A DNA stretch of 64,000 bases from Allosphingosinicella sp. (GCA_036402575.1 DASWSP010000084.1:9924-73923); one strand, 5' to 3'. Counted from the stretch's first letter, positions 3,606 to 52,368 are shown. Numbers and translations are program-made. The notes: a model not told the origin generated them from the sequence alone.

Positions 3606-3629
3606 AAAACTGCACGAGGGAGCAGAATT
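3606..3629. promoter_or_regulatory. regulon operator copy O1
   Basis: AAAACTGCACGAGGGAGCAGAATT, a perfect AAAACTGC-N8-GCAGAATT. It lies ~55 nt upstream of the crotonase ATG and just after the tetR stop. Confidence 0.7.
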
Positions 3630-3632
3630 ACA

Positions 3633-4358
3633 TCAGGCTACCTTCTCGCGCACCATCCGCGGCGGATGCTGCGCCTGGGCGACGAGACTGTCGACTCCAT
3701 CCTCCATGCCGGCGTGGATCATCGCCAGGATCTCGGTGCGGGCGGTACCGCGCGTGGCGCCGGCCATGAAGGTCAGATAGCTCATCAGCAGTCGGGGGAT
3801 GATATCCTCGTCGGAAATCTGGCCGCGCGCCCATTCGTTGATGGTGGCATATTCGAAGCGCACAAGGTCGTCGGCGAGCTGGCCTGCATCCACCCACGGC
3901 TGGAGCTGACGGCGGGCCTGCAGCCGCCGGATCCATTCCAGATTGGGGTCGGTGCCCATGCGGTGCATCGTCTGCCACAGGTCCGGGTTCACCTCGGCGC
4001 TGAAGTAGATCGCCATGATCGCGCGGATATAATTGCGGATCTTGCGGTTGCGCCGGGTGACGGCGACGATCCGCTCGACGTTGCGCTGGAGCGTTCCGAC
4101 CGGACTGCGGTAGTTGATGCGCGCCAGATATTCGCTGAAATATTCCTGGATGGCGACGGCGATCAGCCGCTCGCGGGTCTGGAACGCATTGTAGAGCGTA
4201 CGTTTGGCGACGCCCGCGCGCTTGCACAATTCATGCATGCTGAAATCCCCGATCCCCTGTTCAGCGATCAGGTTCCGGGTCTCCTCGAGAATCCGGCGGC
4301 GCCGGTCCCGAATAGCTGGGCTTGAATAAGTCAGCGACTTGTCGCCTTTGTCGCTCAA
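3633..4358 (-). CDS. TetR/AcrR family transcriptional regulator
   Basis: N-terminal HTH RRRILEETRNLIAEQGIGDFSMHELCKRAGVAKRTLYNAF. Apparent TTG start at 4358. A TTGACG-18-TAAGAT sigma70-like promoter can be read upstream. Confidence 0.85.
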   Translation of the reverse strand: MSDKGDKSLTYSSPAIRDRRRRILEETRNLIAEQGIGDFSMHELCKRAGVAKRTLYNAFQTRERLIAVAIQEYFSEYLARINYRSPVGTLQRNVERIVAVTRRNRKIRNYIRAIMAIYFSAEVNPDLWQTMHRMGTDPNLEWIRRLQARRQLQPWVDAGQLADDLVRFEYATINEWARGQISDEDIIPRLLMSYLTFMAGATRGTARTEILAMIHAGMEDGVDSLVAQAQHPPRMVREKVA

Positions 4359-4426: not shown

Positions 4427-5965
4427 TCAGCCACCGATCGTCCGTTCGGTCGGCCAGTAACGGCGCCGCAATTCGCGCTTGTTGATCTTCCCCATCGGAT
4501 TTCGGCCGAGGTCCTCGACGAATTCATAGGATCGCGGACATTTGTAGCCCGCAAGCGAGGCGCGGCAATGACGGTTGAGCGTGTCCTGGTCCGGCGGATC
4601 GGCCGGATCGGCGGCGACGATTAGCGCCTTGGCCTCCTCGCCCATTTCGGCGTTGGGAGCGCCGATCACCGCGACGTCGGCGACCTGCGGATGAGTCAAC
4701 AGGACCTGTTCGGCCTCGGCCGGGTAGATGTTGACGCCGCCCGAGACGATCATGTCCGACACCCGATCGGTGATGAACACGTAGCCGTCTTCGTCGACGA
4801 ACCCCATTTCGCCCAGGGTGAAGACGCCCGGCGCGATGTGCGCGGCGGCCGTCTTTTCGGGATCGCCATGATAGACGATGCCGCGCCCGCTCGGATCGCG
4901 CACATAGAGCTGGCCGACCTGGTTCGGCGCGAGCGGCTCGCCATCCTCGCCGACCACCACCGTCTCGAGCGGCGGCACCGCCTTGCCGACCGAGCCCGGC
5001 TTGCGCAGCCATTCCTCCGAAGCGATGGCGTGGGTCGTGCCCGCCTCGGTCCCGCCATAGGCCTCGAACAGCACCGGACCGAACCAGTCGATCATCGCGC
5101 GCTTGACCTCGCGCGGACAGGCGGCGCCGGTATGGGCGAGCCGCCTCATGCTCGACACGTCGTATTTCTCCCGCACCTGCGCCGGAAGCGCGAGCAGGCG
5201 CTGGAAATGGGTGGGCACCATCACCGATCCGGCGATCTTCTCGCGCTCGATCGTCGCCAGCGCGGCCTCGGGCTCGAAGGCGCTCATCACCACCAGCGCG
5301 CTGCCGCCCATCAGGCTGCGCACCATCGTCAGCGGGCCGGTATGGTAGAGCGGCCCGACGACGAGGCCCGGCGACGGAGTCGCGCGCGTGCGCATGATGG
5401 CGCCGAACTCGGCCATGTCGGCGGCCGGCGGGAAATAGCCGGGCGGCGTCTCGGTCGCCTTCGGCCGACCCGTGGTTCCTGACGTGTAATGGAGATGCGG
5501 CCGGGGCCTGACGTCGGTGGGCGGCGCCGAGTCAGGGGCGGCCCCGACCCATTCCTCCCAGGCGGTCAGGCCCGCGCGCGGGCTGCAGCGCCAGCCGACG
5601 ATCGTCTTGATTCCTGCCGTGGCCGCCGCGGCCATCCCCGCCTCCGCCGTCTCCTCCGCAACGAACAGCGCGCCGGCCCCGGAAGACTGGAGAATATAGG
5701 CGACCTCGTCCGGGGTGAGATGGAAGCTGACCGGCACGCTCGACAGGCCCGCCTCCAGCGCCGCGACATAGGCGATCACCGTCTCCGAGCTGTTGGGCGC
5801 GAACACGGCCACCCGCTGCGCCGCTCCGGCGGACAGGCCCTGCATCGCGTGGATCGCGCGGTTGAGGATGGGGTCGAGTTCGGCCCAGCTGTAGCGGACG
5901 CGCTCGTCCGCCAGCGCCAGCTCCCCGCGCCGCGCCGGCTCGATACCCGCCACCGTTACCGACAT
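4427..5965 (-). CDS. AMP-forming acyl-CoA synthetase (LvaE-like position)
   Basis: AMP-binding signature YTSGTTGRPKA. 512 aa. ATG at 5963-5965. Confidence 0.9.
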   Translation of the reverse strand: MSVTVAGIEPARRGELALADERVRYSWAELDPILNRAIHAMQGLSAGAAQRVAVFAPNSSETVIAYVAALEAGLSSVPVSFHLTPDEVAYILQSSGAGALFVAEETAEAGMAAAATAGIKTIVGWRCSPRAGLTAWEEWVGAAPDSAPPTDVRPRPHLHYTSGTTGRPKATETPPGYFPPAADMAEFGAIMRTRATPSPGLVVGPLYHTGPLTMVRSLMGGSALVVMSAFEPEAALATIEREKIAGSVMVPTHFQRLLALPAQVREKYDVSSMRRLAHTGAACPREVKRAMIDWFGPVLFEAYGGTEAGTTHAIASEEWLRKPGSVGKAVPPLETVVVGEDGEPLAPNQVGQLYVRDPSGRGIVYHGDPEKTAAAHIAPGVFTLGEMGFVDEDGYVFITDRVSDMIVSGGVNIYPAEAEQVLLTHPQVADVAVIGAPNAEMGEEAKALIVAADPADPPDQDTLNRHCRASLAGYKCPRSYEFVEDLGRNPMGKINKRELRRRYWPTERTIGG

Positions 5966-5985
5966 CCACGCCCTCCCCTACAATT

Positions 5986-6009
5986 GAATCTATACCGCTA
6001 TGCAGTTTT
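5986..6009. promoter_or_regulatory. regulon operator copy O2
   Basis: Reverse complement reads AAAACTGCATAGCGGTATAGATTC. It lies ~20 nt upstream of the acyl-CoA synthetase ATG and overlaps the MFS stop codon. Confidence 0.6.
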
Positions 6010-7347
6010 CACGGCAAGTTCGTTGCGGGAGATGGCGGGCTCGAGATAGCGCAGCGCCACCCGGAAGCTGACCAGCGCTACGATCGTGCCGGTGATCACC
6101 ACCACCGCCAGCGAATAACCGATCTTGGCCTCGTCGCGGAAAACATAGTCGGTCAGCGCCCCCACGATCGCCGGGCCGGCGCCGAGCCCCAGAATGGTGA
6201 AGACGAACAGGAACATGGCCAGCATCCGGGCGCGGATCGAGCTCGGCGCCAGCAGCGCCATGATCGAGGAGACGTAGACCATGAACGGCACGGTGATGAA
6301 CTGCGCGACGGCATAGCAGGCGAGGAAGACGTAGATGTTGTCGGCGAAGAACATGTAGGCGACCACCGGCATCAGCGCGAGGATCAGCCAGCTGTAGAAG
6401 CGCAGGTGCGCGTCCTTCATGCCGCGCCCGAACAAGCGGTCGACGATCCAGCCGTTCACGACGAGCGAGGCCGCGGCGATGATGTTCATCGCGCTCAGCG
6501 CCGGCCCATATTCCCCCGGCTCCCAGCCGAAGCGCCGGTCGATATAGGCCGGGATCCAGTTGCTCATCGAATAGCCGCAGATCGCGAGGCACGAGGTGCC
6601 GATCAGCATCAGCACGATCAGCTTCCAGTTGCCGCGGATGAAGGCCATCACCTCGCCGCGCAGCACTTCGTTACCGACGGCGCCCGGGCTGCGGCGGCGG
6701 CCCGGATCGGCGAAGGTGAACAGCAACGGGGCGAGGATGAAGCCCGGCAGGCCGACCATCATCAACACCAGCTGCCAGGGTTCCGCCGGTCCGTGGATCG
6801 GCAGATCCACGCCCTCGAAGGTGGTGGCGTAGGCGATCGCCAGGCCGCCGAGGCCGAAGGCGGTCGCCGATCCGACCTTGCCCGCCATCTGGAACGAGGA
6901 GGTGGCGATCGTCAGCTTGTCGCGCGAGAAGCCGTCCGAGATGAGCGAATAGGCCGCCGGCAGCAAAGCCGCCTCGCCCACTCCGACCAGGATGCGCGCG
7001 CCGAGCAGGCTCTCGTAGGAATCCGCGAAGCCGCAGGCAATGGTGGCGGTCGCCCAGAGGATGACCCCGAAGAAGATGATCCAGCGGCGCGAGAAGCGGT
7101 CCGCCGCCCAGCCGAGCGGCAGGCCGAACACGGCGTAGAAGATCGCGAACGAGGTCGAGGTGATCATGCTGATCTGGACGTCGCTGAGCAGCAGGTCCGC
7201 CTTGATCGGAGTCACCAGCATGCTGAGGATCAGCCGGTCGACCCAGGAGAAGACGTACATCACGAACAGCACGGTCACCATCCACCAGCTCGTGCGGCTG
7301 GCTTCGGCCTGGAGGGCGCTGACGGGATTGGCGTAGACGCTGGTCAT
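5998..7347 (-). CDS. MFS transporter
   Basis: Internal start MTSVYANP at 7347. 12-TM-like profile with MFS motif GWAADRFSRRW. The upstream extension of the track ORF is non-coding-like. Confidence 0.85.
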   Translation of the reverse strand: MTSVYANPVSALQAEASRTSWWMVTVLFVMYVFSWVDRLILSMLVTPIKADLLLSDVQISMITSTSFAIFYAVFGLPLGWAADRFSRRWIIFFGVILWATATIACGFADSYESLLGARILVGVGEAALLPAAYSLISDGFSRDKLTIATSSFQMAGKVGSATAFGLGGLAIAYATTFEGVDLPIHGPAEPWQLVLMMVGLPGFILAPLLFTFADPGRRRSPGAVGNEVLRGEVMAFIRGNWKLIVLMLIGTSCLAICGYSMSNWIPAYIDRRFGWEPGEYGPALSAMNIIAAASLVVNGWIVDRLFGRGMKDAHLRFYSWLILALMPVVAYMFFADNIYVFLACYAVAQFITVPFMVYVSSIMALLAPSSIRARMLAMFLFVFTILGLGAGPAIVGALTDYVFRDEAKIGYSLAVVVITGTIVALVSFRVALRYLEPAISRNELAVKTA

Positions 7348-7372
7348 CTGACTTCCTCTCGTGAGGCGTGCG

Positions 7373-8602
<1,230 letters not shown>

Positions 8603-8619
8603 CGGGCCGTCTCCATGGA

Positions 8620-9357
8620 TCAAAGGGTAAGTCCGCCGTCGACGAGCAAGGTCTGCCCGCAGATGTAGCCGGCCAGCGGCGAGGCGAGGAAAAGGGCGAC
8701 TCCGGCCATCTCATCGGTCGTGCCGAAGCGGCCCATCGGGATCTTGGCGAGCGCGCGCTCGCGGCGCTCGGGACTCTCCATCGTGACCTTGGTCATCTTG
8801 GTGTCGACGAGGCTCGGCGCGAAGCCGTTGACGCGGATGCCGTCCTTCGCCCAGGCTTGGCCCAGGGTACGAACGAGGCCGACCGCGGCCGTCTTGGACG
8901 CGGCATAAGCGGGGTTGCCCATGGTCGAGCGGAACGCCGCGACCGAGCTCACCACGATCACCGACCCCTTGGCGGCCTTCAGCAGCGGATGGAAGCGCTG
9001 GGCGATGTGCATGACGCTGTCGACGTTGACGGCCATCACCTTGTCCCAGCCCTGGCGCTCGAACTCCTTGCGGCCGTAGAGCACCGCCCCCTGCGACTGG
9101 ACGAGGATGTCGAGCCGCTCGAACGGCGCCTGCGCCGCGGCGATCGCGTCGGGATCGCTGACGTCGACGGAGACATAATGAAGGCCGGCGAGGTCGGAGC
9201 CCCCCTCCCCCTCATAGTCGGCCGCGCTCGCGCGGGTTCCCCAGACATGGACCTCGGCGCCGCGCGCCCGGAACGCCTGCGCGATCGCATTGCCGATGCC
9301 GCTCGATCCGCCGACCACGAGCGCGGTCTTGCCGCTGAAATCAAGCTCGCTTGTCAT
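8620..9357 (-). CDS. short-chain dehydrogenase/reductase (LvaD-like position)
   Basis: [15 protein letters not shown] Rossmann motif and YAASKTA (YxxxK). Internal start MTSELD at 9357. ATGA overlap with the upstream kinase gene. Confidence 0.85.
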
Positions 9358-10364
9358 CCGATCCACTCCTGCGCGCGCTCGAACAGGCGGACGGCGCGGC
9401 CGTGCAGACGCTCGCCGACATCCGCGGGCGCTTTGCCGGCGCAGGCGCGGGCGTGGGTTCCTTCGAGCAATATGCCGAGCTTGTAGCAGGCCAGCACCTT
9501 GTACCAATCCACCGCCGACAGATCGCGCGCGCTGCGTTCGCGATAATGCGCGACCAGCTCGTCGGCGGTGGGAAAGCCTTCCCAAGGCTCGACCCTGACG
9601 GTGCTTTCGCCGCCGTCGCCCGCCGGCCAGGTGGCGAGCAGCCAGCCCAGATCGATCAGCGGGTCCCCGATCGTCGCCAGCTCCCAATCGACGATTGCGG
9701 CCAGCTCCGGCCCATCGTTGCGGAACATGACGTTGGCGAGGTGATAGTCGCCGTGGATGATCCCCGGAATGAAATGCGCCGGCCGGTTTGCGTCCAGCCA
9801 TGCGGCGACCCGGGCGACGCCGGGCAGCCCGTCCGTCCAGCCGGGCATGGCGGCATAGCCGTCGAGCTGCTTCTTCCAGCGCGCGACCTGCCGCTCCAGA
9901 TAGTTTTCGGGCCGGCCGAAATCGCCGAGCCCGACCCGCGCATGGTCGACGGCGCCGAGCGCGGCGATTCCTTCGGCCATGGCGAGCCCCATGCGGCGGC
10001 GGATGGCGGGCGAACCGGCGTGCAGCGGCGGCAGGCCCGCGACCGGATTGAAGCCGTCGACCGGCACCATCAGGTAGAAAGCGGCGCCGAGCACCGATTC
10101 GTCGCCGCAGGCGGCGACCAGGGTCGGGTGCGGCACGTCGCTTCCGGCGAGCGCGGCAAGCACCCGCGCCTCGCGCCGCATCGTTTCGTTGGACTCCGGC
10201 CTGGGATGCGCGGGCGGATGGCGCAGCACATATTCCGCATCGCCGCGGCAAAAGCGCAGCAGGATGTTCTGCGTGCCGCCCGACAGCGCGGCAACGTCGC
10301 GGATCGGCCCCGCGCCAACGCCTTCGGCGTCCATCCAGCCCTCGAGAGCCTTGGTATCAACCAC
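9354..10364 (-). CDS. APH-type phosphotransferase (LvaA / ACAD10-11 kinase-domain-like)
   Basis: Kinase catalytic loop IIHGDYHLANVMF and IVDWE. Start uncertain: GTG at 10364 or ATG at 10334. Confidence 0.8.
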   Translation of the reverse strand: MVDTKALEGWMDAEGVGAGPIRDVAALSGGTQNILLRFCRGDAEYVLRHPPAHPRPESNETMRREARVLAALAGSDVPHPTLVAACGDESVLGAAFYLMVPVDGFNPVAGLPPLHAGSPAIRRRMGLAMAEGIAALGAVDHARVGLGDFGRPENYLERQVARWKKQLDGYAAMPGWTDGLPGVARVAAWLDANRPAHFIPGIIHGDYHLANVMFRNDGPELAAIVDWELATIGDPLIDLGWLLATWPAGDGGESTVRVEPWEGFPTADELVAHYRERSARDLSAVDWYKVLACYKLGILLEGTHARACAGKAPADVGERLHGRAVRLFERAQEWIG

Positions 10365-10437: not shown

Positions 10438-10461
10438 AAAACTGCACTGATGGTCAGAATT
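10438..10461. promoter_or_regulatory. regulon operator copy O3
   Basis: AAAACTGCACTGATGGTCAGAATT in the divergent region between the kinase operon (-) and the thiolase (+, ATG 10498). Confidence 0.65.
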
Positions 10462-10497: not shown

Positions 10498-11670
10498 ATG
10501 GGAGAGGCATATATCGTCGCGGTCGCGCGAAGCGCCGGCGGACGCAAAGGCGGTCGGCTGGCGGGATGGCACCCGACCGATCTGGCGGGGGCGGTCCTCA
10601 AGGGCCTGATCGAACGCAGCGGCGCCGATCCGGCCGCGATCGAAGACGTCATCATGGGCTGCGCCTGCCCCGGCGGCGAGCAGGGCGCCAACATCGGCCG
10701 CTATGCCGCGCTCGCGGCCGGCCTGCCCGAATCGGTGCCCGGTACGACCGTCGATCGCCAGTGCGGCTCATCGCAGCAGGCGCTGCATTTCGCGGCCGCG
10801 ACGGTGATGACGGGAACGATGGACGTGGTCATCGCCGCCGGCGTGGAATCGATGACCCGAGTGCCGATGGGCCTGCCCTGGACGCTCGCCGCCCAGCATG
10901 GCTACGGCACCTACCGCAGCCCCGGCCTCAACGACCGCTACGGCGACACGCCCTTCAGCCAGTTTTCGGGCGCGGAGATGCTCGCCCGCAAATACGGGTT
11001 CGACCGCGAGCAGCTCGACGCCTTCTCGCTTGAGAGCCACCGCAAGGCGATGGCCGCGACGCAAGGCGGCAAGTTCGACGCCGAGATCGTGCCGCTGCAA
11101 GTGACGCTGGAAGACGGGACCACCGAGACCCACCGCGCCGACGAGGGCATCCGGCGCGACGCGACGATCGAGAAGATCGCGTCGGTGAAGACGCTCCAGG
11201 AGGGCGGCATGATCACGGCCGCCAACGCCAGCCAGATCTGCGACGGCGCGGCGGCTCTGCTCATCGCCAACGAGCGCGGCCTCAAGGCGCTCGGCGCCAC
11301 GCCGCTGGCGCGCGTGCACCAGATGAGCGTGCTCGGCCACGACCCGATCATCATGCTCGAGGCCCCCATCCCCGCCACCGAGCGGGCGCTTCGGAAGGCC
11401 GGGATGAAGATCGACGACATCGATCTTTACGAGGTCAACGAGGCCTTCGCGCCCGTCCCGCTGGCCTGGGCGCAGGCGAGCGGCGCCGATCCGGAGCGGC
11501 TCAACGTCAATGGCGGCGCGATCGCGCTCGGCCATCCGCTGGGCGCGAGCGGCGCGAAGCTCATGACGACGCTCGTCCAGGCGCTTCACGACCGCGGCGG
11601 CCGCTACGGCCTGCAGACGATGTGCGAGGCCGGCGGCATGGCCAACGTGACGATCATCGAGCGGCTTTAG
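10498..11670 (+). CDS. acetyl-CoA C-acyltransferase (thiolase)
   Basis: Active-site Cys region [12 protein letters not shown], then [17 protein letters not shown] and CEAGGMA. 390 aa. Confidence 0.9.
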
Positions 11671-14250: not shown

Positions 14251-14274
14251 AATACTGCACTACGGTGCAGATTT
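14251..14274. promoter_or_regulatory. regulon operator copy O4
   Basis: AATACTGCACTACGGTGCAGATTT contains a perfect CTGCAC-N4-GTGCAG. It lies ~24 nt upstream of the hydratase ATG (14227). Confidence 0.7.
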
Positions 14275-14278
14275 CAAG

Positions 14279-15061
14279 TCAGCGCGGCGGCATCCTGATC
14301 GCGCCGTCCAGGCGCACGTCCTCGCCGTTCAGATAGTCGTTTTCGATCATCGTCAGCGCAAGCTGCGCGAACTCTTCCGGCCGGCCGAAGCGCTTGGGAA
14401 AGGGGACGCTGGCGGCGAGCGCGTCGCGCACCGCCTGCGGCGCCCGGCCCATCAGCGGCGTATCGAAGATGCCCGGAAGGATGGTGTTGACTCGGATGCC
14501 CTCGTTCATGAGGTCGCGCGCCACCGGCAGCGTCATCGCCACGATCCCGCCCTTGGACGCCGAATAAGCGGCCTGGCCGATCTGGCCGTCCTCGGCCGCG
14601 GCGCTGGCGGTGTTGACGATCGCGCCGCGCGCGCCGTTCGGATCCGGATCGAGGGTCAGCATGCCCGCGGCGGATTTGGCGAGGCAGCGGAAGCTGCCGA
14701 CCAGGTTGATCTGGATGATCCGGTCGAACGCGTCGATCGGGAAATGCCTGATCTCGCCCGTCGCCTTGTCGCGGCTGGCGGTCTTGACCGCATTGCCCGT
14801 GCCGGCGCAGTTCACCAAGATCCGCTCCTGGCCCTGCGCGGCGCGCGCCTTCGCGAAGCCCTCATCGACCGACGCGTCGCTGGTCACGTCGACGGCGCAG
14901 TAGACGCCGCCTATTTCCGCCGCGACCTGCTCGCCGCGTTCGGCGTTGAGGTCGAACAGCGCGACCTTGACGCCCTTGGCGGCAAGCGCGCGGGCGGTCG
15001 CCTCGCCGAGGCCCGAAGCGCCCCCGGTGACGACGGCGGAGACGCTGGCGTCAAGCTTCAT
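14279..15061 (-). CDS. 3-hydroxyacyl-CoA dehydrogenase type-2-like SDR
   Basis: Internal start MKLDAS at 15061. Motifs VVTGGASGLG and YSASKGG. Overall resemblance to HSD17B10/FadB2-type SDRs. Confidence 0.8.
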   Translation of the reverse strand: MKLDASVSAVVTGGASGLGEATARALAAKGVKVALFDLNAERGEQVAAEIGGVYCAVDVTSDASVDEGFAKARAAQGQERILVNCAGTGNAVKTASRDKATGEIRHFPIDAFDRIIQINLVGSFRCLAKSAAGMLTLDPDPNGARGAIVNTASAAAEDGQIGQAAYSASKGGIVAMTLPVARDLMNEGIRVNTILPGIFDTPLMGRAPQAVRDALAASVPFPKRFGRPEEFAQLALTMIENDYLNGEDVRLDGAIRMPPR

Positions 15062-16307
15062 GCAACACTCCTTGGCGTTGGGAAATCGCGCCGCTTTCGG
15101 CGAGCGCGTCGAGTTCGCGCGGATCGAGCCCCAGCCACTCGGCCAGTATCTCCTGCGTATGCTCGCCGACATGGGGCGGGCGGCAGCGGTAATCGGCCGG
15201 CGTCTCGGACAATTTCCCCGGATAGGCGACGGTCGGCACCCGCACGCCGTCCTCGCGAACGAAGTGGTGGACCGTTCCGCGCGCCTCGACGAACGGATCC
15301 TCGAACACCTGCTCGATGGTGTTGACCGGTCCCGCCGGCACGCCCTTGGCGACGAGATGGTCGATCAGGGGGCCGCCCTCGAAACCGCGCACCAGTTCCT
15401 GCACCTTCTCCTCGATCGCGTCGCGGTTGACCTGGCGGGCGTGGCTGGTGGCGAAGCGCGGGTCGGTCGCGAGCTCGGGCACGCCGAGCTCGTGGCAGAG
15501 CACTCGGAACTGCCCGTCATTGCCGACCGCGATGATGATCGTTCCGTCCGCCACGTCGAACGTCTTGTAGGGGACGACGGTGGGATGCCGGTTGCCGAGC
15601 CGACTCGGCAGCGCGCCTCCCACCAGCCAGCTCAGCGACTGGTTGGCGAGCATGGCGATCTGGGTGTCGAGCAGCGACAGGTCGATATGCTGGCCGATGC
15701 CCGTCCGCTCCGCGTGCCGCAGGGCGAGCAGGGTGCTGACGGCGGCATACATCCCCGTCGACAGGTCGCACATCGCGACTCCGACGCGCAGCGGCGGGCC
15801 GTCGGGCTCGCCGGTGATGCTCATCAGCCCGCCCATCCCCTGGGCGACGAAATCGTAGCCGCCGCGATCCTTGTAGGGGCCGGTCTGGCCGAAGCCGGTG
15901 ATCGAGCAATAGACCAGGCGGGGATTGACCGCCTTCAGGCTCTCATAGTCGAGCCCGTATTTCCGCAGGCCGCCGACCTTGAAATTCTCGACCACGACAT
16001 CCGCCTCGGCGGCGAGGCGGCGGATCAGCGCGGCGCCGTCGGGATGGGCGAGGTTGATCGCGGCCGAGCGCTTGTTGCGGTTGCACGACAGATAATAAGC
16101 GCTCTCGCCGCGATCCTCCTCGCCGTCCGCGCCGATCAGATAGGGAGGGCCCCAGGCGCGCGTGTCGTCGCCCTTGCCGGGGACCTCGATCTTGATCACG
16201 TCGGCGCCGAAATCGGCGAGGATCTGCGTGCACCATGGACCCGCCAGCACCCGCGACAGGTCGAGCACCTTGATGCCGTCGAGCGCTCCGGTTGCTTGCT
16301 TCGTCAT
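15051..16307 (-). CDS. family III CoA-transferase (CaiB/BaiF type)
   Basis: Internal start MTKQATG at 16307. N-terminal VLDLSRVLAGPWCTQILADFGADVIKIE and catalytic-Asp segment GGYDFVAQGMGGLMSITG. Confidence 0.85.
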   Translation of the reverse strand: MTKQATGALDGIKVLDLSRVLAGPWCTQILADFGADVIKIEVPGKGDDTRAWGPPYLIGADGEEDRGESAYYLSCNRNKRSAAINLAHPDGAALIRRLAAEADVVVENFKVGGLRKYGLDYESLKAVNPRLVYCSITGFGQTGPYKDRGGYDFVAQGMGGLMSITGEPDGPPLRVGVAMCDLSTGMYAAVSTLLALRHAERTGIGQHIDLSLLDTQIAMLANQSLSWLVGGALPSRLGNRHPTVVPYKTFDVADGTIIIAVGNDGQFRVLCHELGVPELATDPRFATSHARQVNRDAIEEKVQELVRGFEGGPLIDHLVAKGVPAGPVNTIEQVFEDPFVEARGTVHHFVREDGVRVPTVAYPGKLSETPADYRCRPPHVGEHTQEILAEWLGLDPRELDALAESGAISQRQGVLHEA

Positions 16308-16699: not shown

Positions 16700-17901
16700 G
16701 CGCGCTCGAACACGGCAGCGAGCCCCTGGCCGCCGCCGATGCACATCGTCTCGAGCCCGAAGCGCATGTCGCGGCGGTGCAGCTCGCGAACCAAAGTCGC
16801 CAGGATGCGGCCGCCGGTGGCGCCGATCGGATGGCCGAGCGAGATGCCGGAGCCGTTGACGTTGAGCCGGTCGCGCTCGTCCCAGCCCCAGCCCTTGAGC
16901 ACCGCAAGCACCTGCGGCGCGAACGCCTCGTTGAGCTCGACCAGGCCGATGTCGTCCCAGCGCAGGCCGGTGCGCGCGAACAGGCGCTCGACCGCCGGCA
17001 CCGGGCCGATCCCCATGCGCGAAGGCTCGCACCCCGCCGCGGCCCAACTGTGGAACCACGCCATCGGCTCGAGCCCGAGCTCGGCAAGCTTGTCCTCGGC
17101 GACCACGAGGCAGGCGGCGCCCGCGTCGTTCTGCTGGCTGGCATTGCCCGCGGTCACCACGCCGTCCTTCTCGATCGGCTTGAGCTGGGCGAGCGACTCG
17201 GCCGTCGCGTCGGCGCGGATGCCCTCGTCGCGAACGAACATCACCGGATCGCCGCGCCGCTGCGGCACCGGCACCGGCACGAGCTCGTCGTCGAACTTGC
17301 CTGCCTCCCACGCGGCCGTCGCGCGGCGGTGGCTCATCGCCGCGAATTCGTCGCACTCCTCCCGGGTGATGCCGTAATCGCTGGCGAGGTTGTTGGCGGT
17401 TTCGATCATGCCGCTGATCACGCCGAAGCGGGCGATCGGCTGCGACATCACCCGTCCCCGGGTCAGCCGGTCGTGCATCGTGGTCGACCCCGAACGGGCG
17501 CCGCGGCGATGGTCGACCGAATAATATTCGACGTTGCTCATGCTTTCGACGCCGCCCGCGACGACGACGTCGGCGGCGCCGGTCTGGACCATCATGGCGG
17601 CGTCGATCACGGCCTGCAGGCCGCCGCCGCAGCGCCGGTCGAGCTGGTAGCCGGGCGTCGAGATCGGCAGCCCCGCCGCGAGCGCCGACCAGCGGCCGAT
17701 CGCCGGCGCTTCGCCGTTGCCGTAGCCCTGGGCGTAGACGACGTCGTCGATCCGCTCGGGATCGATGCCGGTGCGGTCGATCAGCGCCTTGAGCACGATC
17801 GCGCCGAGCTCGCCGGCGGGAATGTCCGCGAGGCTTCCGCCGAACTTGCCGACGGCGGTTCGGATCGGCGACACGATCGCGGCGCGACGCAATTCACTCA
17901 T
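16696..17901 (-). CDS. acetyl-CoA C-acyltransferase (thiolase)
   Basis: Internal start MSELRR at 17901. Motifs LDRRCGGGLQAV, NGSGISLGHPIGATG and CIGGGQGLA. Confidence 0.9.
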   Translation of the reverse strand: MSELRRAAIVSPIRTAVGKFGGSLADIPAGELGAIVLKALIDRTGIDPERIDDVVYAQGYGNGEAPAIGRWSALAAGLPISTPGYQLDRRCGGGLQAVIDAAMMVQTGAADVVVAGGVESMSNVEYYSVDHRRGARSGSTTMHDRLTRGRVMSQPIARFGVISGMIETANNLASDYGITREECDEFAAMSHRRATAAWEAGKFDDELVPVPVPQRRGDPVMFVRDEGIRADATAESLAQLKPIEKDGVVTAGNASQQNDAGAACLVVAEDKLAELGLEPMAWFHSWAAAGCEPSRMGIGPVPAVERLFARTGLRWDDIGLVELNEAFAPQVLAVLKGWGWDERDRLNVNGSGISLGHPIGATGGRILATLVRELHRRDMRFGLETMCIGGGQGLAAVFERA

Positions 17902-19049
17902 CAGGACTTCGCCTCCCGCAGCATCGCCCGGGCGATGATCAGTTGCTGTATTTGCGACGTGCCCTCGTAGATGCGCAGCAGGCGCACGTCGCGATAGAAT
18001 CGTTCCACCTTGTACTCGGCCATGTAGCCGGCGCCGCCGTGGATCTGAACCGCGCGGTCGGCGACCCGGCCGACCGCCTCGCTCGACATATATTTGAGCG
18101 CCGAGGCCTCGAGGCTCACCCGCTCGCCCGCGTCGAAACGGGCGGCGGTCGTGTTCATCAGCGCCTCGGTCGCGAGCTGGTCGACCTTGCTGTCGGCGAG
18201 CATCGCCTGGACGAGCTGGAACTCGGCGATCGGCTGGCCGAACTGCCTGCGCTCCATCGCGTAGCGGAGGCTCATGTCGATCAGCCGGTCGCACATGCCG
18301 AGCGCGACTCCGGCGATGTGGATTCGGCCGCGGTCGAGCACCTTCATCGCGGTCTTGAAGCCTTGCCCGGGCCTGCCGCCGATGATCGCGTCTGCCGGCA
18401 CCCGCACATCCTCGAAGATGACGTCGCAGGTCTTGGCGCCGCGCTGGCCCATCTTCTTGTCGGGCGCGCCGAGGCTGATCCCGGGCGTGTCCGCGGGCAC
18501 GATGAACGCGGAGATGCCCGCGGCGCCCTTCTGTTCCGGATCGGTGCGCGCCATCAGCGTGTACACCTTGGCGCGCGGCGCGTTGGTGATGAAGCGCTTG
18601 GTTCCGTTGATGCGGTAGTGATCGCCTTCGAGCACCGCGCTGGTGCGCAGCGAAGCGGCGTCCGAACCTGCCTCGGGCTCGGTCAGCGCGAAGCTCGACA
18701 CCGCCTCGCCCGAAGCGAGCCTGGGGAGCCATTCCCGCTTCTGCGCCTCGGTGCCGTCGATGACGATGCCCTGGCTGCCGATGCCGACGGTGGTGCCGAT
18801 CACCGAACGGAAGGCGACCGAGGCGCGGGCGAGCTCGCGCACGACCGCCGCCTCCTCCGCCATGGTCAGGCCGAGCCCGCCATATTCCTCGGGGATCGAC
18901 AGGCCGAACAGGCCCAGTTCGCGGATCTCGGCGACGATCTCCTCCGGAACCGCGTCCTCCTCCTCGACGCGGTCCTCGGCCGGGATCAGCCGTTCCTCGA
19001 CGAACCGGCGCACGGTCGAGCGCAGCAGATCGAAGGTTTCGCTATCCAT
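17901..19049 (-). CDS. acyl-CoA dehydrogenase (canonical)
   Basis: 382 aa with FALTEPEAGSD and YEGTSQIQ catalytic-Glu motif. Confidence 0.9.
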   Translation of the reverse strand: MDSETFDLLRSTVRRFVEERLIPAEDRVEEEDAVPEEIVAEIRELGLFGLSIPEEYGGLGLTMAEEAAVVRELARASVAFRSVIGTTVGIGSQGIVIDGTEAQKREWLPRLASGEAVSSFALTEPEAGSDAASLRTSAVLEGDHYRINGTKRFITNAPRAKVYTLMARTDPEQKGAAGISAFIVPADTPGISLGAPDKKMGQRGAKTCDVIFEDVRVPADAIIGGRPGQGFKTAMKVLDRGRIHIAGVALGMCDRLIDMSLRYAMERRQFGQPIAEFQLVQAMLADSKVDQLATEALMNTTAARFDAGERVSLEASALKYMSSEAVGRVADRAVQIHGGAGYMAEYKVERFYRDVRLLRIYEGTSQIQQLIIARAMLREAKS

Positions 19050-19118
19050 GCAAGCATCCCCTGGCCGGTCGTCCGGCTCGTACGCCTCTATCTCTTCGAC
19101 TCAAGCCCGGAGTCAACC

Positions 19119-24570: not shown

Positions 24571-24594
24571 AAAACTGCAACGTAGGCTACAATT
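24571..24594. promoter_or_regulatory. regulon operator copy O6
   Basis: AAAACTGCAACGTAGGCTACAATT, ~78 nt upstream of ACAD ATG 24493. A TTGACT hexamer (minus strand, 24613..24618) lies 18 nt upstream in the direction of transcription. Confidence 0.6.
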
Positions 24595-26296: not shown

Positions 26297-26320
26297 AATT
26301 TTGCACTGTGGACTACAATT
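26297..26320. promoter_or_regulatory. regulon operator copy O7
   Basis: AATTTTGCACTGTGGACTACAATT, 16 nt upstream of the P450 ATG. TTGACA (minus strand, 26338..26343) lies 17 nt upstream, so the operator starts at the predicted -10. Confidence 0.65.
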
Positions 26321-26323
26321 AAC

Positions 26324-26893
26324 TCAAGGGCGGAACCTGTCAACTTCGCCGGACGCGGCGGCAAGATCGTCGGGCGTGTCGACGTCCAGGGCAAGGCCAA
26401 ACCGGTCGACCGTCTCATGCGGCGCCCCCGCCGACGCCCGGTGCAAGGCGAAGCTTCCGGGCCCGAAGGCAAAGCGGAACGGCCGGGCGTCGGCAATGGC
26501 GAGCCCGTTGGTGCCGGTGCCGTGGCGATCGGGCGCGATCGCGCAGCCTGACCGCTCCGCGGCCTCGAGCAGGGCCGCGACGTCATCGGCGCCGAGATGC
26601 GGCAGATCGGCGTGCAGGATGGCGACGGGCGCCGCGCCCAGATCCCGGCGCGCCGCCTGAAGCTCCTCGTTGAGCCCTCTGCCTTCGTCCGGCCGCCAGT
26701 CTCCCGCGCAGCCATCCGGCAGGCGGTCGGACAGGATGATCAGCCGGACCCCCGGCACCTGCCCCACCATCCCGGCGACATGCCTGAACCAGCGCTCGCC
26801 GAGCTGCGCCCGCTCCTCATCGGTCAGCACATCCCTGAGGCGGGTCTTGCGCGAGCCTTCCTGCTTCAGCGGAACGATCACGGTCCAGTTCAT
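26324..26893 (-). CDS. cofC: CofC/FbiD-type guanylyltransferase (F420 biosynthesis)
   Basis: 189 aa with VIVPLK N-terminus and DRHGTGTNGL motif. Last gene of the F420 operon. ATGA overlap with cofD. Confidence 0.8.
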   Translation of the reverse strand: MNWTVIVPLKQEGSRKTRLRDVLTDEERAQLGERWFRHVAGMVGQVPGVRLIILSDRLPDGCAGDWRPDEGRGLNEELQAARRDLGAAPVAILHADLPHLGADDVAALLEAAERSGCAIAPDRHGTGTNGLAIADARPFRFAFGPGSFALHRASAGAPHETVDRFGLALDVDTPDDLAAASGEVDRFRP

Positions 26894-27822
26894 CGCAGGC
26901 TGTCGGCGAGCGCGAGCGCGGCGCGCGCCACCCGGACCCGATCGTCGAGGCTCTGCATCAAGGTGTCGGTCCGCCCCGAAGCGATGCCGAGGTCGACCGG
27001 CGGGTCGCGCTCGTCGACCAGCAGCCCGTCGATCGCGTCGCCATAATGGCGTGCGATCGCGGCCGCGTCGGACGGCACGCCGAGCTCCGCCATCAGCTTG
27101 CCGGTCGGACCTTTCACCGCGGTTCCGCCGACCAGCGGCGACACCGCGACGACGGGCGCCGGCGCGTCGCGCAGCGCCTCCCGGATGCCCGGCACCGCCA
27201 GGATGGGATCCACGCTCAGGAAGGGGTTCGACGGCGCGATCAGGATGGCTCGGTTGGCGGGGTTCCCGATCGCTTCGAGCACGCCGGGGGCCGGCGCGGA
27301 CTCCTCCACTCCGGCGAAGCGGATCGACCGCACGGCGGGTTCGCAGCGCAGCCCGACGAAGTAGCGCTGGAAGGACAGCTCGCCCTCTTGCGTGTCCAGC
27401 CGGGTCTCGATCGGCTCGTCACTCATCGGCAGGATGCGCGCCGCGATGCCCCAGGCGCCGGCGAAGTCGGCGGTGATCGCCGACAGGCTATCGCCCTGGC
27501 GGCGGCGCATCGACCGCAGCACATGGAGCGCGAGGTCGCCGTCGCCGAGCAGGAACCAGTCGGGACCGCCGAGCGAACGCAGCGCTTCCATGAAATTCCA
27601 GCTCTCGCCCTCGCGGCCCCATCCCTGCGCGGCGTTGGCCCGGCCGGAGAGCGTGTAGAGCAAGGTGTCGATATCGGGCGACACGTGCAGCCCGAGGTGC
27701 ACGAAATCGTCGCCGGTATTGACGATCGCGGTCACTTCGGAGGCGGGCATGGCGTGGATCAGGCCCAGCACCAGCTTGGCGCCGCCGACCCCGCCGGTGA
27801 GGACCGCAACGGGGCCGGTCAC
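26890..27822 (-). CDS. cofD: 2-phospho-L-lactate (or analogue) transferase CofD/FbiA
   Basis: LTGGVGGAKL P-loop-like motif, NTGDD, and WFLLGDGDLALH. Confidence 0.9.
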   Translation of the reverse strand: MTGPVAVLTGGVGGAKLVLGLIHAMPASEVTAIVNTGDDFVHLGLHVSPDIDTLLYTLSGRANAAQGWGREGESWNFMEALRSLGGPDWFLLGDGDLALHVLRSMRRRQGDSLSAITADFAGAWGIAARILPMSDEPIETRLDTQEGELSFQRYFVGLRCEPAVRSIRFAGVEESAPAPGVLEAIGNPANRAILIAPSNPFLSVDPILAVPGIREALRDAPAPVVAVSPLVGGTAVKGPTGKLMAELGVPSDAAAIARHYGDAIDGLLVDERDPPVDLGIASGRTDTLMQSLDDRVRVARAALALADSLR

Positions 27823-28574
27823 CGGAACAGATCCTCCTCGACCGGCCGCACCAGCGCCGAGGCGGGAGCGTCCGGCGCGCTCCAGTCAAGCCCGCGCACC
27901 AGGGCCGCAGGCACGCCCTCGGCCCCCTCGCCCGTGGCAAGGCCCGCCGCGCTGGCCACCATGTCGGCGAAGGCGACCTGCGTCACTTCGAGCAGCCGCC
28001 CGTCGCGGTCCCGCTCGCCGCGCCGATCGATCAGCGCGGGCAGCCCGCTCGCGCCGATCGCGACGTTGACCACCCCCATCCGCCACGGCCGCCCGAAGCT
28101 GTCGGAGATCACGATCGCGGGCGGCGCCGGCCATCGCCGGGCCAGGCCGGCGCGCAGCCGCTCCGCCGACGCGTCCGAATCCTCCGGCAAGAGCAGCGCC
28201 CGATCGCCCTCGCCCGAGCCGAGGTTCGAACGGTCGATGCCGGCATTGGCCATGACATGGCCGGTGCGATGGCGGGTGATGAGCAAATTGGGGGCGGTCC
28301 TCACCACCGCCGCCGATTCGTCCAGCACCAGCTCGACGAGCCGCGCGTCCTTGCCGGTCGCATCGGCGATCCGCTCCGCTTCCGCACCCGGCCGGACGGC
28401 GGCGAGGCTGACGAAACGCCCCTCCGCCTTCGACACTATCTTCTGAGTCACGACGAGCACGTCCCGTGCCATGGGCACCACACCCGCGGCAGCAACCGCG
28501 TCGGCGAGGATCGCGGCAAGATCGTCCCCCGGCAAAACCTCGGGAATGCCGGTCAGCGCGACGATCTCGATCAT
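27819..28574 (-). CDS. cofE: F420-0:gamma-glutamyl ligase CofE (single-domain)
   Basis: VVVTQKIVSKAEGR, ANAGID and SDSFGRPWR motifs. Only 251 aa, so there is no C-terminal nitroreductase-like domain. Confidence 0.85.
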   Translation of the reverse strand: MIEIVALTGIPEVLPGDDLAAILADAVAAAGVVPMARDVLVVTQKIVSKAEGRFVSLAAVRPGAEAERIADATGKDARLVELVLDESAAVVRTAPNLLITRHRTGHVMANAGIDRSNLGSGEGDRALLLPEDSDASAERLRAGLARRWPAPPAIVISDSFGRPWRMGVVNVAIGASGLPALIDRRGERDRDGRLLEVTQVAFADMVASAAGLATGEGAEGVPAALVRGLDWSAPDAPASALVRPVEEDLFR

Positions 28575-28583
28575 GAATCGGCC

Positions 28584-29258
28584 TCAGCTCGAAGGTGGGA
28601 TCAACTCGCCTGTGATCCGAATGCCCGCGCCGTCAACCTGATAGGTCTTGTTGAGGAAGATGAGGATCGAGGTCATCGCCTCCGCGGCCGCCGAATTGAC
28701 GAGCGCACCGCCATGCAGCCCGCGCAGCCCCGCCGCGTTCGCAATCTCCACCACCGCCTCCCGCGCCGCCTTGTCGTCGCCGAAGACGAGGACGTCGCAA
28801 CCGATGTCGGCATCGGTGATCAGCTTGTGCGCGGCGACATTGTGGAACCCGGAGACCACCGTCACGCCTTCCCCCAGGATCTGCTGGGCGCGCGCCGCGG
28901 CGCTTCCTTCGGCGGGGAGCTGCACCCGCATCACCTTGGGCGGCATGAGCGGCACGGTCGTGTCGACGACGATCTTGCCCGCGACATGCGGCGCGATCTC
29001 CCGAAGCGTCGCGTCCTGCGCCGCGAAGGGCACCGTGACGATGACGATGTCGGCGGCTTGCGCCGCATCGGCATTCGCCATGCCGCTCAGGCCGAAGCCG
29101 AGCTCGCGCGCAGCCGCCTCGGCGCTCTCGGCGGAGCGCGATCCGATCACCACCTTGCGCCCGGCCTTGGCCAGGCGCCGCGCGATCGCCGCCCCCAGCT
29201 TGCCGGTGCCGCCGATCACGCCGATCGTGGCGTCAGGCCGCCTGGACGCTTCGCTCAT
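28584..29258 (-). CDS. fno: NADPH-dependent F420 reductase (F420H2:NADP+ oxidoreductase)
   Basis: IGVIGGTGKLGAAIARRLAKAG Rossmann motif. 224 aa. AGGAGA RBS. The start overlaps the fbiC 3' end by 26 nt. Confidence 0.85.
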   Translation of the reverse strand: MSEASRRPDATIGVIGGTGKLGAAIARRLAKAGRKVVIGSRSAESAEAAARELGFGLSGMANADAAQAADIVIVTVPFAAQDATLREIAPHVAGKIVVDTTVPLMPPKVMRVQLPAEGSAAARAQQILGEGVTVVSGFHNVAAHKLITDADIGCDVLVFGDDKAAREAVVEIANAAGLRGLHGGALVNSAAAEAMTSILIFLNKTYQVDGAGIRITGELIPPSS

Positions 29259-31581: not shown

Positions 31582-31657
31582 CGCCTTCCTAGAATCCTCC
31601 CCCGGCGCCAACTGCGATTCGTGCCCCGATCATCTTCGCCAATATGCGGCGCGCGTC

Positions 31658-31681
31658 AATTTAGCACTGCAGTGTAGAATT
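31658..31681. promoter_or_regulatory. regulon operator copy O8
   Basis: AATTTAGCACTGCAGTGTAGAATT, ~77 nt upstream of the fbiC ATG. Confidence 0.6.
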
Positions 31682-31745: not shown

Positions 31746-31769
31746 ATTTCTAACCTGCAATGCAAAATT
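31746..31769. promoter_or_regulatory. regulon operator copy O9
   Basis: Reverse complement reads AATTTTGCATTGCAGGTTAGAAAT. It lies ~99 nt upstream of the fused CoA-transferase ATG (31868). Confidence 0.55.
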
Positions 31770-34258: not shown

Positions 34259-34286
34259 GCGCGACGAAGAAAGCAGGGGAACAGCG

Positions 34287-35297
34287 GTGGAACTCAACCT
34301 TCGATACGACATGAACAGCCCGCCGTTCGGCGCGCCGCATCCGATACTCTATCGGACCGCGATCGAGCAGGCGACGTGGGCGGACAAGCTCGGCTTCAAC
34401 CAGGTCTATCTGGCCGAGCATCACGGCGCGGAGCACGGCTACTGCCCCTCGTCGATGGTGCAGGCCGCTTCGATCTTCGGGCCCACCAAGCAGATCCTCG
34501 TCCACCTCTCGGCGCTGGTCGTGACGATGCACGATCCCATCCGCCTCGCCGAGGATCTGGCGGTGCTCGACAACATCTCCAACGGCCGCATCGTGTTCAC
34601 CGCCGGCATGGGCTACCGACCGCATGAATTCGAGATGTTCGGCAAGGACATCACCAAGCGGCTCGCGATCATGAACGAGACGATGGCGGTGCTGAAACAG
34701 GCATGGACCGGCGAGCCGTTCGAATATCAGGGGCGAACGGTGCGCGTGTCGCCCAGGCCGGTGCGGCCCGGCGGGCCCAAGATCTACATGGGCGGCTCGA
34801 CCGACAAGTCGGCGATCCGCGCCGCCAAGGCGGGCTATCAGTATTTTCCCGGCCATCCCGACCTGTTCGAGATCTACAAGGAGGAGCGCGCCAAGGCCGG
34901 CTTCCCCCCGCCCGAGCCGCTGCTCAAATCGGGCGCGAGCTTCCTCTACGTCAGCGAGGACCCGGACCGCGACTGGCCGCAGCTCGCCCCCCACATCGCC
35001 TACGCGACCAATACCTATGCGGAGTGGGCGAAGGAGCGTGGCGAGGGCGCGACCCGCTACCAGGCGTCCGCGTCCGACGAGGAGCTTCGCCACCTGCCCA
35101 ACATCAAGATCCTGACGCCCGATCAGTGCTTCGAATATGCGATGGATCTCGGCAACGAGTCGCAGCTGACCTTCCACGCGCTGCTCGGCGGCATCGATCC
35201 CGACCTTTCGTGGAAGAGCCTGCGGCTGTTCGAGAAATCGGTGCTGCCGCGACTGGTGGCGGCGGGGATGGTCAAAGGACCCGCACGCGCGGCATGA
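34287..35297 (+). CDS. luciferase-like (LLM class) flavin/F420-dependent oxidoreductase
   Basis: 336 aa with a TIM-barrel LLM pattern (FNQVYLAEHH, LDNISNGRIVFTAGMGY). GTG start at 34287 with AGGGGA RBS. Confidence 0.8.
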   Translation: MELNLRYDMNSPPFGAPHPILYRTAIEQATWADKLGFNQVYLAEHHGAEHGYCPSSMVQAASIFGPTKQILVHLSALVVTMHDPIRLAEDLAVLDNISNGRIVFTAGMGYRPHEFEMFGKDITKRLAIMNETMAVLKQAWTGEPFEYQGRTVRVSPRPVRPGGPKIYMGGSTDKSAIRAAKAGYQYFPGHPDLFEIYKEERAKAGFPPPEPLLKSGASFLYVSEDPDRDWPQLAPHIAYATNTYAEWAKERGEGATRYQASASDEELRHLPNIKILTPDQCFEYAMDLGNESQLTFHALLGGIDPDLSWKSLRLFEKSVLPRLVAAGMVKGPARAA

Positions 35298-42657: not shown

Positions 42658-42672
42658 TGCCGCCGGTCAGCC

Positions 42673-44763: not shown

Positions 44764-44811
44764 CCCGCTCCCTCTCGACAGCCTTACCCGGTGGCTAGCC
44801 CACTCATTGGC

Positions 44812-44835
44812 AATCCTGCACATAAGTGCAATATT
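44812..44835. promoter_or_regulatory. regulon operator copy O10
   Basis: AATCCTGCACATAAGTGCAATATT (TGCAC-N4-GTGCA), ~49 nt upstream of ATG 44763. TTGACA (minus strand, 44843..44848) lies exactly 7 nt upstream in the direction of transcription. Confidence 0.65.
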
Positions 44836-44913
44836 TACCCTGTGTCAACACGCCTCTCCGGAACGCGTGCTCGCCAGCCACGTTGATGACGGGCTCCAGC
44901 CGAAGGTAGTCAG

Positions 44914-45114: not shown

Positions 45115-45130
45115 TCGGGCAGCCGGCCGG

Positions 45131-47470: not shown

Positions 47471-47511
47471 GTCTCCCCTTGCCCGCCGCTACTCAGGCTC
47501 TCGCGCAAGCG

Positions 47512-50767: not shown

Positions 50768-50778
50768 GGCGATGTGTC

Positions 50779-50802: not shown

Positions 50803-50810
50803 GGGGGCGG

Positions 50811-52358: not shown

Positions 52359-52368
52359 CCCCGCCCCT

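Follow-up and report, generated by a model that had tools for sequence, protein, structure and literature searches.

Does a bacterial gene array encode the mammalian ACAD10/ACAD11 route for 4-hydroxy acids in separate proteins, and is it Pseudomonas putida's lva operon under another guise? The question is raised by a 64,000-nucleotide (nt) stretch of DNA from Allosphingosinicella sp. (GCA_036402575.1 DASWSP010000084.1:9924-73923), referred to here as the window. At positions 4427-10364 it carries five closely spaced minus-strand genes which encode, in transcription order, an APH-type kinase, a short-chain dehydrogenase/reductase (SDR), an acyl-CoA dehydrogenase (ACAD) family protein, a major facilitator superfamily (MFS) transporter and an acyl-CoA synthetase. 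A first-pass annotation had listed these genes in this order, and each product has a Pfam match. The strings it quoted, HGDYHLANVMF, IVDWE and AYGGMG, are all found in the translations, and the kinase stop overlaps the SDR start by ATGA, as it had stated. The gaps that follow the SDR gene are 17, 28 and 32 nt. Identical copies of the ACAD were found by genome scan on two metagenome contigs only, and the same genes were called independently on two metagenome contigs. Because independent gene calls agree and the array is kept in many genomes, a chance array is not at issue. The window has a G+C content of ~69%, and the closest relatives of its genes in the genome scan are in Sphingomonas and Sphingobium. 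Together with its TonB-dependent receptors, these features point to a sphingomonad-like alphaproteobacterium. The operon is real and well conserved, and the pathway has already been described in bacteria and mammals. We propose, with a probability of about 70%, that the five genes form a self-contained module that would pass 4-oxo or 4-hydroxy carboxylic acids into beta-oxidation.

The ACAD-family protein (409 aa; 7373-8602, minus strand; Pfam Acyl-CoA_dh_N/M/1) is closest to ACAD11. In a PDB sequence search its best matches were human ACAD11 (2wbi, E 1.4e-124) and mouse ACAD11 (8v3u, 2.6e-124; 8v3v, ~1e-124), with Mycobacteroides abscessus 4hr3 at 1.3e-123, whereas the best match to an ordinary ACAD reached only 2.9e-39. 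Identity was 52-53% to human ACAD11 compared with 31.5% to the ordinary Thermus ACAD 1ukw. The first-pass annotation had called the protein an atypical ACAD with AYGGMG instead of YEG. The usual catalytic Glu is indeed absent, but the motif had been read in the wrong register: GGMG pairs with GGYG of 1ukw, and YEG pairs with ADG. Since GGMG is the general ACAD GGxG motif, the correct replacement is YEG to ADG, that is, Glu to Asp. The ordinary IYEGT does occur in the window, in a second ACAD (17901-19100). The Asp, D384, aligns with the Glu of IYEGT in 1ukw and with D753 of mouse ACAD11. Rashan et al. (PMC12440821) described the active site of this ACAD subgroup as comprising the catalytic Asp D753, an HCMR motif (H634, R637) and a phosphate-binding upstream Arg (R626), and found R626, H634 and R637 to be required for ACAD11 activity. 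These three residues correspond to R257, H265 and R268 of the window ACAD. Its HCMR stretch is identical to that of ACAD11, and ordinary ACADs align with unrelated residues at the R257 and HCMR positions. According to the plasmid list of the Rashan et al. work, 8v3v (D753N) and 8v3u (D220A) are published mouse ACAD11 mutants; since these PDB entries are catalytic mutants, the alignments mark the catalytic positions directly. Two further residues, the proline of APDTGNM and the arginine of GRLGPG, were highlighted by Paquay et al. (PMC11342911). The APDTGNM segment is present in the window ACAD, where the proline is conserved as P103 (P463 in human ACAD11), and the GRLGPG arginine is also kept. 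As judged from these alignments, the window ACAD carries all of the residues reported to be diagnostic for phosphate elimination. We conclude with high confidence that it is probably a 4-phosphoacyl-CoA phosphate-eliminating enzyme.

The kinase (336 aa; 9354-10364, minus strand; Pfam APH, 7.7e-39) begins with a GTG codon, a start supported by homologs, which align from residue 1-2. Its matches in the PDB were Cupriavidus 3dxp (7e-46, 37% identity), 9o56 (3.5e-42, 33%) and the kinase domain of mouse ACAD11 (1.4e-25, 30%). The catalytic D206 aligns with ACAD11 D220, N211 lies five residues on as the counterpart of N225, and the DWE metal site is conserved as D226-W-E228. An Arg, R48 (YVLR48), stands in place of the beta3 Lys, with E65 (RRE65) as the paired alphaC Glu. 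Their counterparts are avlRr and mErE in 9o56, and yvlRk and dRE in ACAD11. The CoA-contacting arginines of the ACAD11 model (PMC12440821), R86 and R176 in the mouse protein, are matched by R64 and R158 in a pairwise HMMER alignment (30% identity). These correspondences suggest, with good confidence, that the protein is probably a 4-hydroxyacyl-CoA kinase. Judged by pairwise identities and E-values, both proteins fall in the ACAD10/11 (FadE2-like) branch, and the proposal that they are a split counterpart of the ACAD10/ACAD11 domains is supported by both homology and residue-level evidence. A search of the kinase, SDR, ACAD, MFS transporter and ligase against NCBIfam gave no match above cut-off, and no curated name therefore applies to any of the five.

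Separate proteins of this kind have a precedent in Burkholderia pseudomallei, whose kinase (Q63VL0) and ACAD (Q63VL1) were shown in vitro to stand in for the corresponding domains of ACAD10 (Paquay et al. 2024, PMC11342911). The expected chemistry is shared, from 4-hydroxyacyl-CoA to 4-phosphoacyl-CoA to 2-enoyl-CoA. Our comparison covered related genera and species of the Burkholderiaceae, which a genome scan with peptides stitched from B. pseudomallei gene-blocks returned in place of B. pseudomallei itself. In these relatives the ACAD shares 57-61% identity with that of the window, and a separate kinase gene directly precedes the ACAD gene, with no SDR gene in between. Their kinase is just 32-36% identical to the window kinase, there is no MFS or ligase gene after the pair, and the context is 3-hydroxyacyl-CoA dehydrogenase, enoyl-CoA hydratase, a gene denoted x, kinase, ACAD and GST. 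Identities computed from B. pseudomallei gene-block fragments (45-77% and 50-62%) were not relied on, owing to frameshift damage from optical character recognition (OCR). With mammalian ACAD10 and ACAD11 the window ACAD shares 52-53% identity, the catalytic Asp, HCMR, the upstream Arg and APDTGNM; the window kinase shares 30% identity with that of ACAD11, together with the catalytic Asp and Asn, DWE and both CoA-contacting Arg. The mammalian enzymes differ in being single polypeptides, ACAD10 with an extra HAD domain, whereas the window encodes two proteins, and the SDR gene separates the kinase gene from the ACAD gene. ACAD11 also has a Lys two residues past the catalytic Asp, where the window kinase has a His. 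The M. abscessus putative acyl-CoA dehydrogenase 4hr3 is 52% identical to the window ACAD over its full length and conserves the Asp and the upstream Arg, but has HHAMR where the window ACAD has HHCMR. It presumably falls in the FadE2-like group of the conserved-domain databases.

The P. putida lva operon was reportedly described by Rand et al. in 2017 as lvaR-lvaABCDEFG, with LvaD as its 4-oxoacyl-CoA reductase. As a reference we used a locus of Pseudomonas sp. NPDC090755 (L083) that is syntenic with P. putida lva. It was recovered by a genome scan with LvaE peptides stitched from OCR-damaged gene-block sequence in the supplement of PMC11342911, and its order is lvaR, lvaA, lvaB, lvaC, lvaD, lvaE, a small membrane protein and a solute symporter. 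The likeness to lva seen by the first-pass annotation extends to the list of functions: both are single operons with a kinase, an ACAD-family phosphate eliminase, an SDR, a CoA ligase and a transporter, and the Asp and HCMR signature of the window ACAD recurs in LvaC. With identities of only 25-35%, it does not appear to extend to orthology with lvaACDE. Compared with their L083 counterparts, the window kinase is 25% identical to LvaA (E 2e-12), the ACAD 35% to LvaC (E 6e-66), the SDR 33% to LvaD (E 9e-20) and the ligase 28% to LvaE (E 1e-32), a short/medium-chain CoA ligase. LvaA and LvaC are remote homologs of the window proteins. Because 33% and 28% are typical of any two members of these superfamilies, the pairings of SDR with LvaD and ligase with LvaE are only analogies. 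Pairwise comparison places the ACAD with ACAD11 (52-53% vs 35% to LvaC); the kinase is 30% identical to ACAD11 and 25% to LvaA. LvaC of L083 is 34% identical to ACAD11 and 32% to an ordinary ACAD, whereas the window ACAD lies in the ACAD10/11 branch. The two systems also differ in regulator (the sigma-54 type LvaR in lva; a TetR gene and no sigma-54 regulator beside the window operon), in transporter (LvaFG, a small protein and solute symporter, in lva; an MFS protein in the window) and in gene order. A search with a true LvaB by tblastn gave a best window match of E 2.6 and found none in 80 related loci, and with intergenic gaps of at most 68 nt there is no room for an LvaB-like open reading frame, the absence of which had been pointed out before. 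On these comparisons, the window operon has an lva-like function list but is a separate, parallel assembly and probably not an lva ortholog.

LvaC of L083 (7977-9149) carries LNIHAPDEGNIHL and VRLAPARLTHCMR; its identity to human ACAD11 is 34%. A 'Pseudomonas LvaC', Q88K54, is said to be 56-62% identical in Fig. S7 of Paquay et al. (PMC11342911). This protein may be a FadE2-type paralog rather than the lva-operon gene.

How widely the arrangement is kept was examined by a genome scan with the kinase, which recovered 80 loci at 64-75% identity, mostly from Sphingomonadales, Caulobacterales and Parvibaculum. Arrangements were counted in the 62 kinase-centred loci with at least 6 kb downstream. 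The full order kinase-SDR-ACAD-MFS-ligase was present in 23 of the 62, mainly Sphingomonadales. Shorter versions were kinase-SDR-ACAD-ligase (4/62), kinase-SDR-ACAD (7/62), kinase-SDR (7/62) and kinase-ACAD with or without the ligase (5/62), and in one locus (1/62) the kinase was followed by a different SDR, a homolog of the window gene at 14279-15172. In Sphingomonas solaris R4DWN (L003) the whole neighbourhood is kept, with an ACAD 87% identical to that of the window. Conservation of the kinase/ACAD gene pair extends over the Alpha-, Beta- and Gammaproteobacteria.

Two other arrangements were observed in these scans. Caulobacter metagenome-assembled genomes (L009-L013, L016-L020, L027, L033, L038, L048 and others) have kinase homologs (67-69% identity) with neither an ACAD nor an SDR of the families concerned within 10 kb; this kinase may have its partner elsewhere in the genome or may serve another role. 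Five Pseudomonas loci (L306, at 4977-8929, L308, L315, L319 and L321) have the order SDR (67% identity), ACAD, kinase (56-57%) and second SDR. The ACAD of the L306 group is 37-39% identical to the window ACAD and carries RLGGGRVHHAMR and LADGPTEVH (Asp/HAMR-type), which suggests that putative phosphate-eliminating ACADs include a second subclade, one linked to these kinase and SDR families.

The SDR (245 aa; 8620-9357, minus strand; Pfam adh_short_C2, 2.8e-53) is a classical member of its family with the Gly-rich motif, N111, S138 and Y151xxxK155. It lies directly downstream of the kinase in 41 of the 62 loci. A reverse genome scan with the SDR gave 79 loci at 62-79% identity, among which the arrangement was kinase-SDR-ACAD in 26, SDR-ACAD in 6, kinase-SDR in 4 and another order in 6, namely the five Pseudomonas-type SDR-ACAD-kinase-SDR loci and one (L261) with SDR-kinase-ACAD. 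The SDR is often, but not always, linked to the kinase/ACAD pair. Its role is at this point proposed from gene position and from the analogy with LvaD. It may be a 4-oxoacyl-CoA reductase; our confidence in this assignment is low, and it is the weakest step of the scheme.

Taken together, the five assignments suggest the following route. The MFS permease, by its family, would import the free acid, and the ligase, likewise by its family, would form the acyl-CoA. The SDR could then reduce 4-oxoacyl-CoA to 4-hydroxyacyl-CoA, or supply the isomer accepted by the kinase, as its position and the LvaD analogy suggest. The kinase, given its homology to tested enzymes and its catalytic and CoA-contacting residues, would phosphorylate the 4-hydroxyl at the expense of ATP. 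The ACAD would use Asp384 as base, Arg257, His265 and Arg268 as phosphate holders and flavin adenine dinucleotide for a net redox-neutral elimination to the 2-enoyl-CoA; this step is proposed because the protein is 52-61% identical to tested enzymes or their close relatives and keeps all diagnostic residues. Neighbouring hydratases, dehydrogenases and the thiolase would take the 2-enoyl-CoA onward, and a TetR-type repressor could act on a 23-bp palindrome before the kinase gene and before the ligase gene. If these assignments hold, the first-pass annotation's view that the substrate or an intermediate carries a gamma-hydroxy or gamma-oxo acyl group follows logically.

The pathway, its signature residues and split bacterial orthologs are already published. 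No description of the alphaproteobacterial packaging, with the SDR between the pair, a dedicated MFS transporter and ligase and a TetR operator, was found in the literature searched. What is new is a modest architectural twist that leaves the view of the pathway mechanism unchanged. The phosphorylation-elimination route is itself recent (P. putida 2017; mammals 2024-2025) and its bacterial reach is barely charted; this locus shows that an ACAD10/11-type pair can share an operon with a dedicated SDR, importer and CoA ligase, and the operon is kept in many Sphingomonadales and some other Proteobacteria, among them cultured strains such as S. solaris R4DWN and Sphingobium chlorophenolicum NBRC 16172 (L022). 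It offers a convenient bacterial system for the role of the SDR, for chain lengths and enantiomers, and for the preference between 4-hydroxyacyl-CoA and alkylglycerol, which is now disputed for ACAD10.

Several observations weigh against the proposed module. Identity of the kinase to its characterised relatives is only 30-37%, and a kinase 67-69% identical to it occurs with none of the partners in 15 of the 62 loci, mostly Caulobacter. Two residues past the catalytic Asp it has His208 (window 9741-9743); this residue is Lys in ACAD11 and in the C. thermarum enzyme, and Arg in 3dxp. For the SDR, NCBIfam offered no informative relative of known function, and the PDB sequence search returned generic FabG, KduD and tropinone-reductase-type proteins only, which therefore have no bearing on its substrate. 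About 35 of the 79 SDR loci (SDR 62-69% identical) have no kinase or ACAD within 5 kb. The pairing of the TetR regulator with the operator sites described below is by proximity only. The substrate of the kinase is also less certain than the first-pass annotation had assumed, because a 2026 preprint (Ye et al., PMC13596139) reports that ACAD10-type kinases, prokaryotic ones included, also phosphorylate 1-O-alkylglycerols in vitro. The window kinase could accordingly act on a non-CoA lipid alcohol of this type, with the module serving the salvage of ether lipids or other lipids. According to Ye et al. (PMC13596139), chimyl alcohol is a substrate both of the ACAD10 kinase domain and of several prokaryotic homologs tested as purified proteins, of which some need acetyl-CoA for full activity, and the close homologs without an ACAD in 15/62 loci would suit such a role. 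So would the 33% identity to 9o56, which, from its HYDxK motif, looks like the C. thermarum structure of Ye et al. However, the Lys of HYDxK that is essential for the alkylglycerol kinase activity of the C. thermarum enzyme (PMC13596139) is His in the window kinase, which keeps both CoA-contacting arginines of ACAD11. The kinase gene moreover overlaps the SDR gene in a tight array with a CoA ligase and an ACAD bearing the Arg/His/Arg phosphate set, and there are no glycerolipid genes in the operon. We consider alkylglycerol salvage improbable. As the window has His, 3dxp Arg and ACAD11 Lys, this position varies within the kinase family, and it may be a substrate-specificity or regulatory position.

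The SDR leaves more latitude. The kinase and ACAD could act as proposed while the SDR converts the non-preferred 4-hydroxy enantiomer, by oxidation to the 4-oxo compound and reduction back, oxidises the 3-hydroxyacyl-CoA partly formed by such ACADs, or works on the free acid ahead of its activation. The ACAD10 kinase prefers R-4-hydroxyacyl-CoA about fourfold and the ACADs partly yield 3-hydroxyacyl-CoA (PMC11342911), the 33% similarity between the SDR and LvaD is generic, and the Burkholderiaceae pair lacks an SDR and lies beside a hydratase and a 3-hydroxyacyl-CoA dehydrogenase. On the other hand, the only characterised SDR precedent in such an operon is LvaD, a 4-oxoacyl-CoA reductase (as summarised in PMC12440821 and PMC11342911), and FadB-type and other 3-hydroxyacyl-CoA dehydrogenases are already encoded in the window. 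We regard a different SDR role as rather unlikely. A true ortholog of P. putida lva, dedicated to levulinate and 4-hydroxyvalerate, would account for the common function list and for the Asp and HCMR signature of LvaC, but identities of 25%, 35%, 33% and 28%, an LvaC that is hardly nearer to the window ACAD (35%) than to an ordinary ACAD (32%), the lack of LvaB, a TetR gene in place of LvaR, the MFS transporter and the different gene order make it very unlikely. Finally, the adjacency could be meaningless, with an ordinary ACAD lying beside an antibiotic (aminoglycoside or macrolide) phosphotransferase. In Pfam and NCBIfam the kinase is only APH-like, with weak matches to APH(3'), capreomycin and macrolide phosphotransferases (E ~1e-6). 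The kinase reaches only 20-28 bits with those resistance-kinase models, which have cut-offs of 205-650. The ACAD has no catalytic Glu and lies nearer to ACAD11 than to ordinary ACADs by 85 orders of magnitude, and the gene pair is kept across three classes of Proteobacteria (Alpha-, Beta- and Gamma-). This explanation is effectively refuted.

Of the remaining genes of the array and its flanks, the first encodes the MFS transporter. The MFS transporter (448 aa; 5998-7344, minus strand; Pfam MFS_1, 5.5e-37) is by family a probable carboxylate importer. Its nearest NCBIfam model is TIGR00893, the D-galactonate transporter subfamily (2.6e-31, under cut-off), and its position is kept, at 62-75% identity, in 23 of the 62 loci. 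The synthetase, an AMP-forming ligase (512 aa; 4427-5965, minus strand; Pfam AMP-binding, 4.8e-55, and AMP-binding_C), has PRK12406 and FadD4 as its nearest NCBIfam models, both under cut-off, and its position is conserved among related loci. Directly downstream, after a 68-nt gap, lies a gene for a TetR-family regulator (3633-4358, minus strand; Pfam TetR_N, 5.1e-11), a candidate repressor, with a promoter-like site at 4419-4390 on the minus strand. Sphingomonas loci L003, L047 and L052 have the gene at the corresponding position, and a TetR gene and a hydratase gene follow the array, as in the window, in 3 of the 23 full arrays. Divergent from the kinase gene, across an intergenic region of 133 nt, is a thiolase gene (10498-11670, plus strand) whose product matches NCBIfam NF005077, acetyl-CoA C-acetyltransferase, above cut-off (4.3e-208); from this match it is assigned to the downstream beta-oxidation step. 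In 7 related loci a thiolase gene is divergent and no more than 400 nt away from the kinase gene, and in many more it lies on the same side further upstream.

A recurrent 23-bp imperfect palindrome, AAnnCTGCA-N9-AGAAT, was found via AT-rich islands in the G+C-rich window. Allowing up to 3 mismatches, it had 35 matches compared with 15.7 +/- 4.3 expected from shuffled sequence. Eleven sites have at most 2 mismatches, all of them at or beside the ends of called genes over ~48 kb. A perfect match, AAAACTGCACTGATGGTCAGAAT (10438-10460), lies in the kinase/thiolase divergent region, and another (3606-3628) just downstream of the TetR stop. The AT-rich operator-like site at 5987-6009, with one mismatch, spans the stop codon of the MFS gene and the 32-nt interval that precedes the ligase gene, and is the operator O2 that had been noted before the synthetase gene. 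The others are at 14251-14274, 24571-24593, 26297-26319, 31658-31681, 31747-31769, 44812-44835, 50744-50767 and 52370-52392. Four Sphingomonas loci (L003, L047, L049 and L052) have a similar AATTCTGC-N8-GGTCAGAA element upstream of their kinase gene. The pattern with N11 spacing gave nothing meaningful, and the N9 version was used instead. A promoter and terminator scan found no more sites than in shuffled sequence, and is therefore neutral as to an internal promoter ahead of the ligase gene. The TetR protein probably controls these putative operator sites, which would tie the module to a larger catabolic regulon.

Over ~48 kb this putative regulon includes several ACADs, hydratases, CoA-transferases, thiolases, FadB, a cytochrome P450 with a ferredoxin, a SnoaL-like protein, F420 biosynthesis genes, a luciferase-like monooxygenase, an SMP-30/SGL lactonase, a sulfatase, a TonB-dependent receptor, a carboxylesterase and two pyrroloquinoline quinone alcohol dehydrogenases with cytochrome c domains. 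For the SMP-30/SGL-type lactonase (35927-36967), the beta-propeller lactonase 7ris is the best solved relative, a weak match (E 8e-11) that we tentatively take to be Rpa3624. Rpa3624 hydrolyses gamma-valerolactone and other hydrophobic lactones (PMC9843451). The context is compatible with gamma-lactones or mid-chain oxygenated acids arising in the regulon, which falls short of proof. A broader and more tentative picture, somewhat doubtful as a whole, is that of an independently assembled, complete gamma-oxo/gamma-hydroxy funnel, in which an SDR unrelated by descent to LvaD would act as reductase or stereo-inverter, the TetR operator would be shared, and the regulon would yield gamma-lactones or mid-chain oxygenated acids from a lipid-like substrate. 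If this were true, the 4-phospho route would routinely serve environmental bacteria as the last part of oxygenated-lipid catabolism.

Two further features of the window carry the same operator motif. At 40582-52376, two tandem quinohemoprotein alcohol dehydrogenases are encoded beside the sulfatase, TonB-dependent receptor and carboxylesterase. TonB-dependent receptors are encoded in the window more than once, and the setting hints that the primary substrate of the regulon is an esterified or sulfated lipid-like alcohol that crosses the outer membrane. F420 genes at 26890-31629 and 34218-35297 encode CofD, a CofE-type ligase, an F420-dependent NADP oxidoreductase and a fused CofG/H radical-SAM protein. 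They lie near the luciferase-like monooxygenase gene, an unusual position inside a Gram-negative catabolic cluster.

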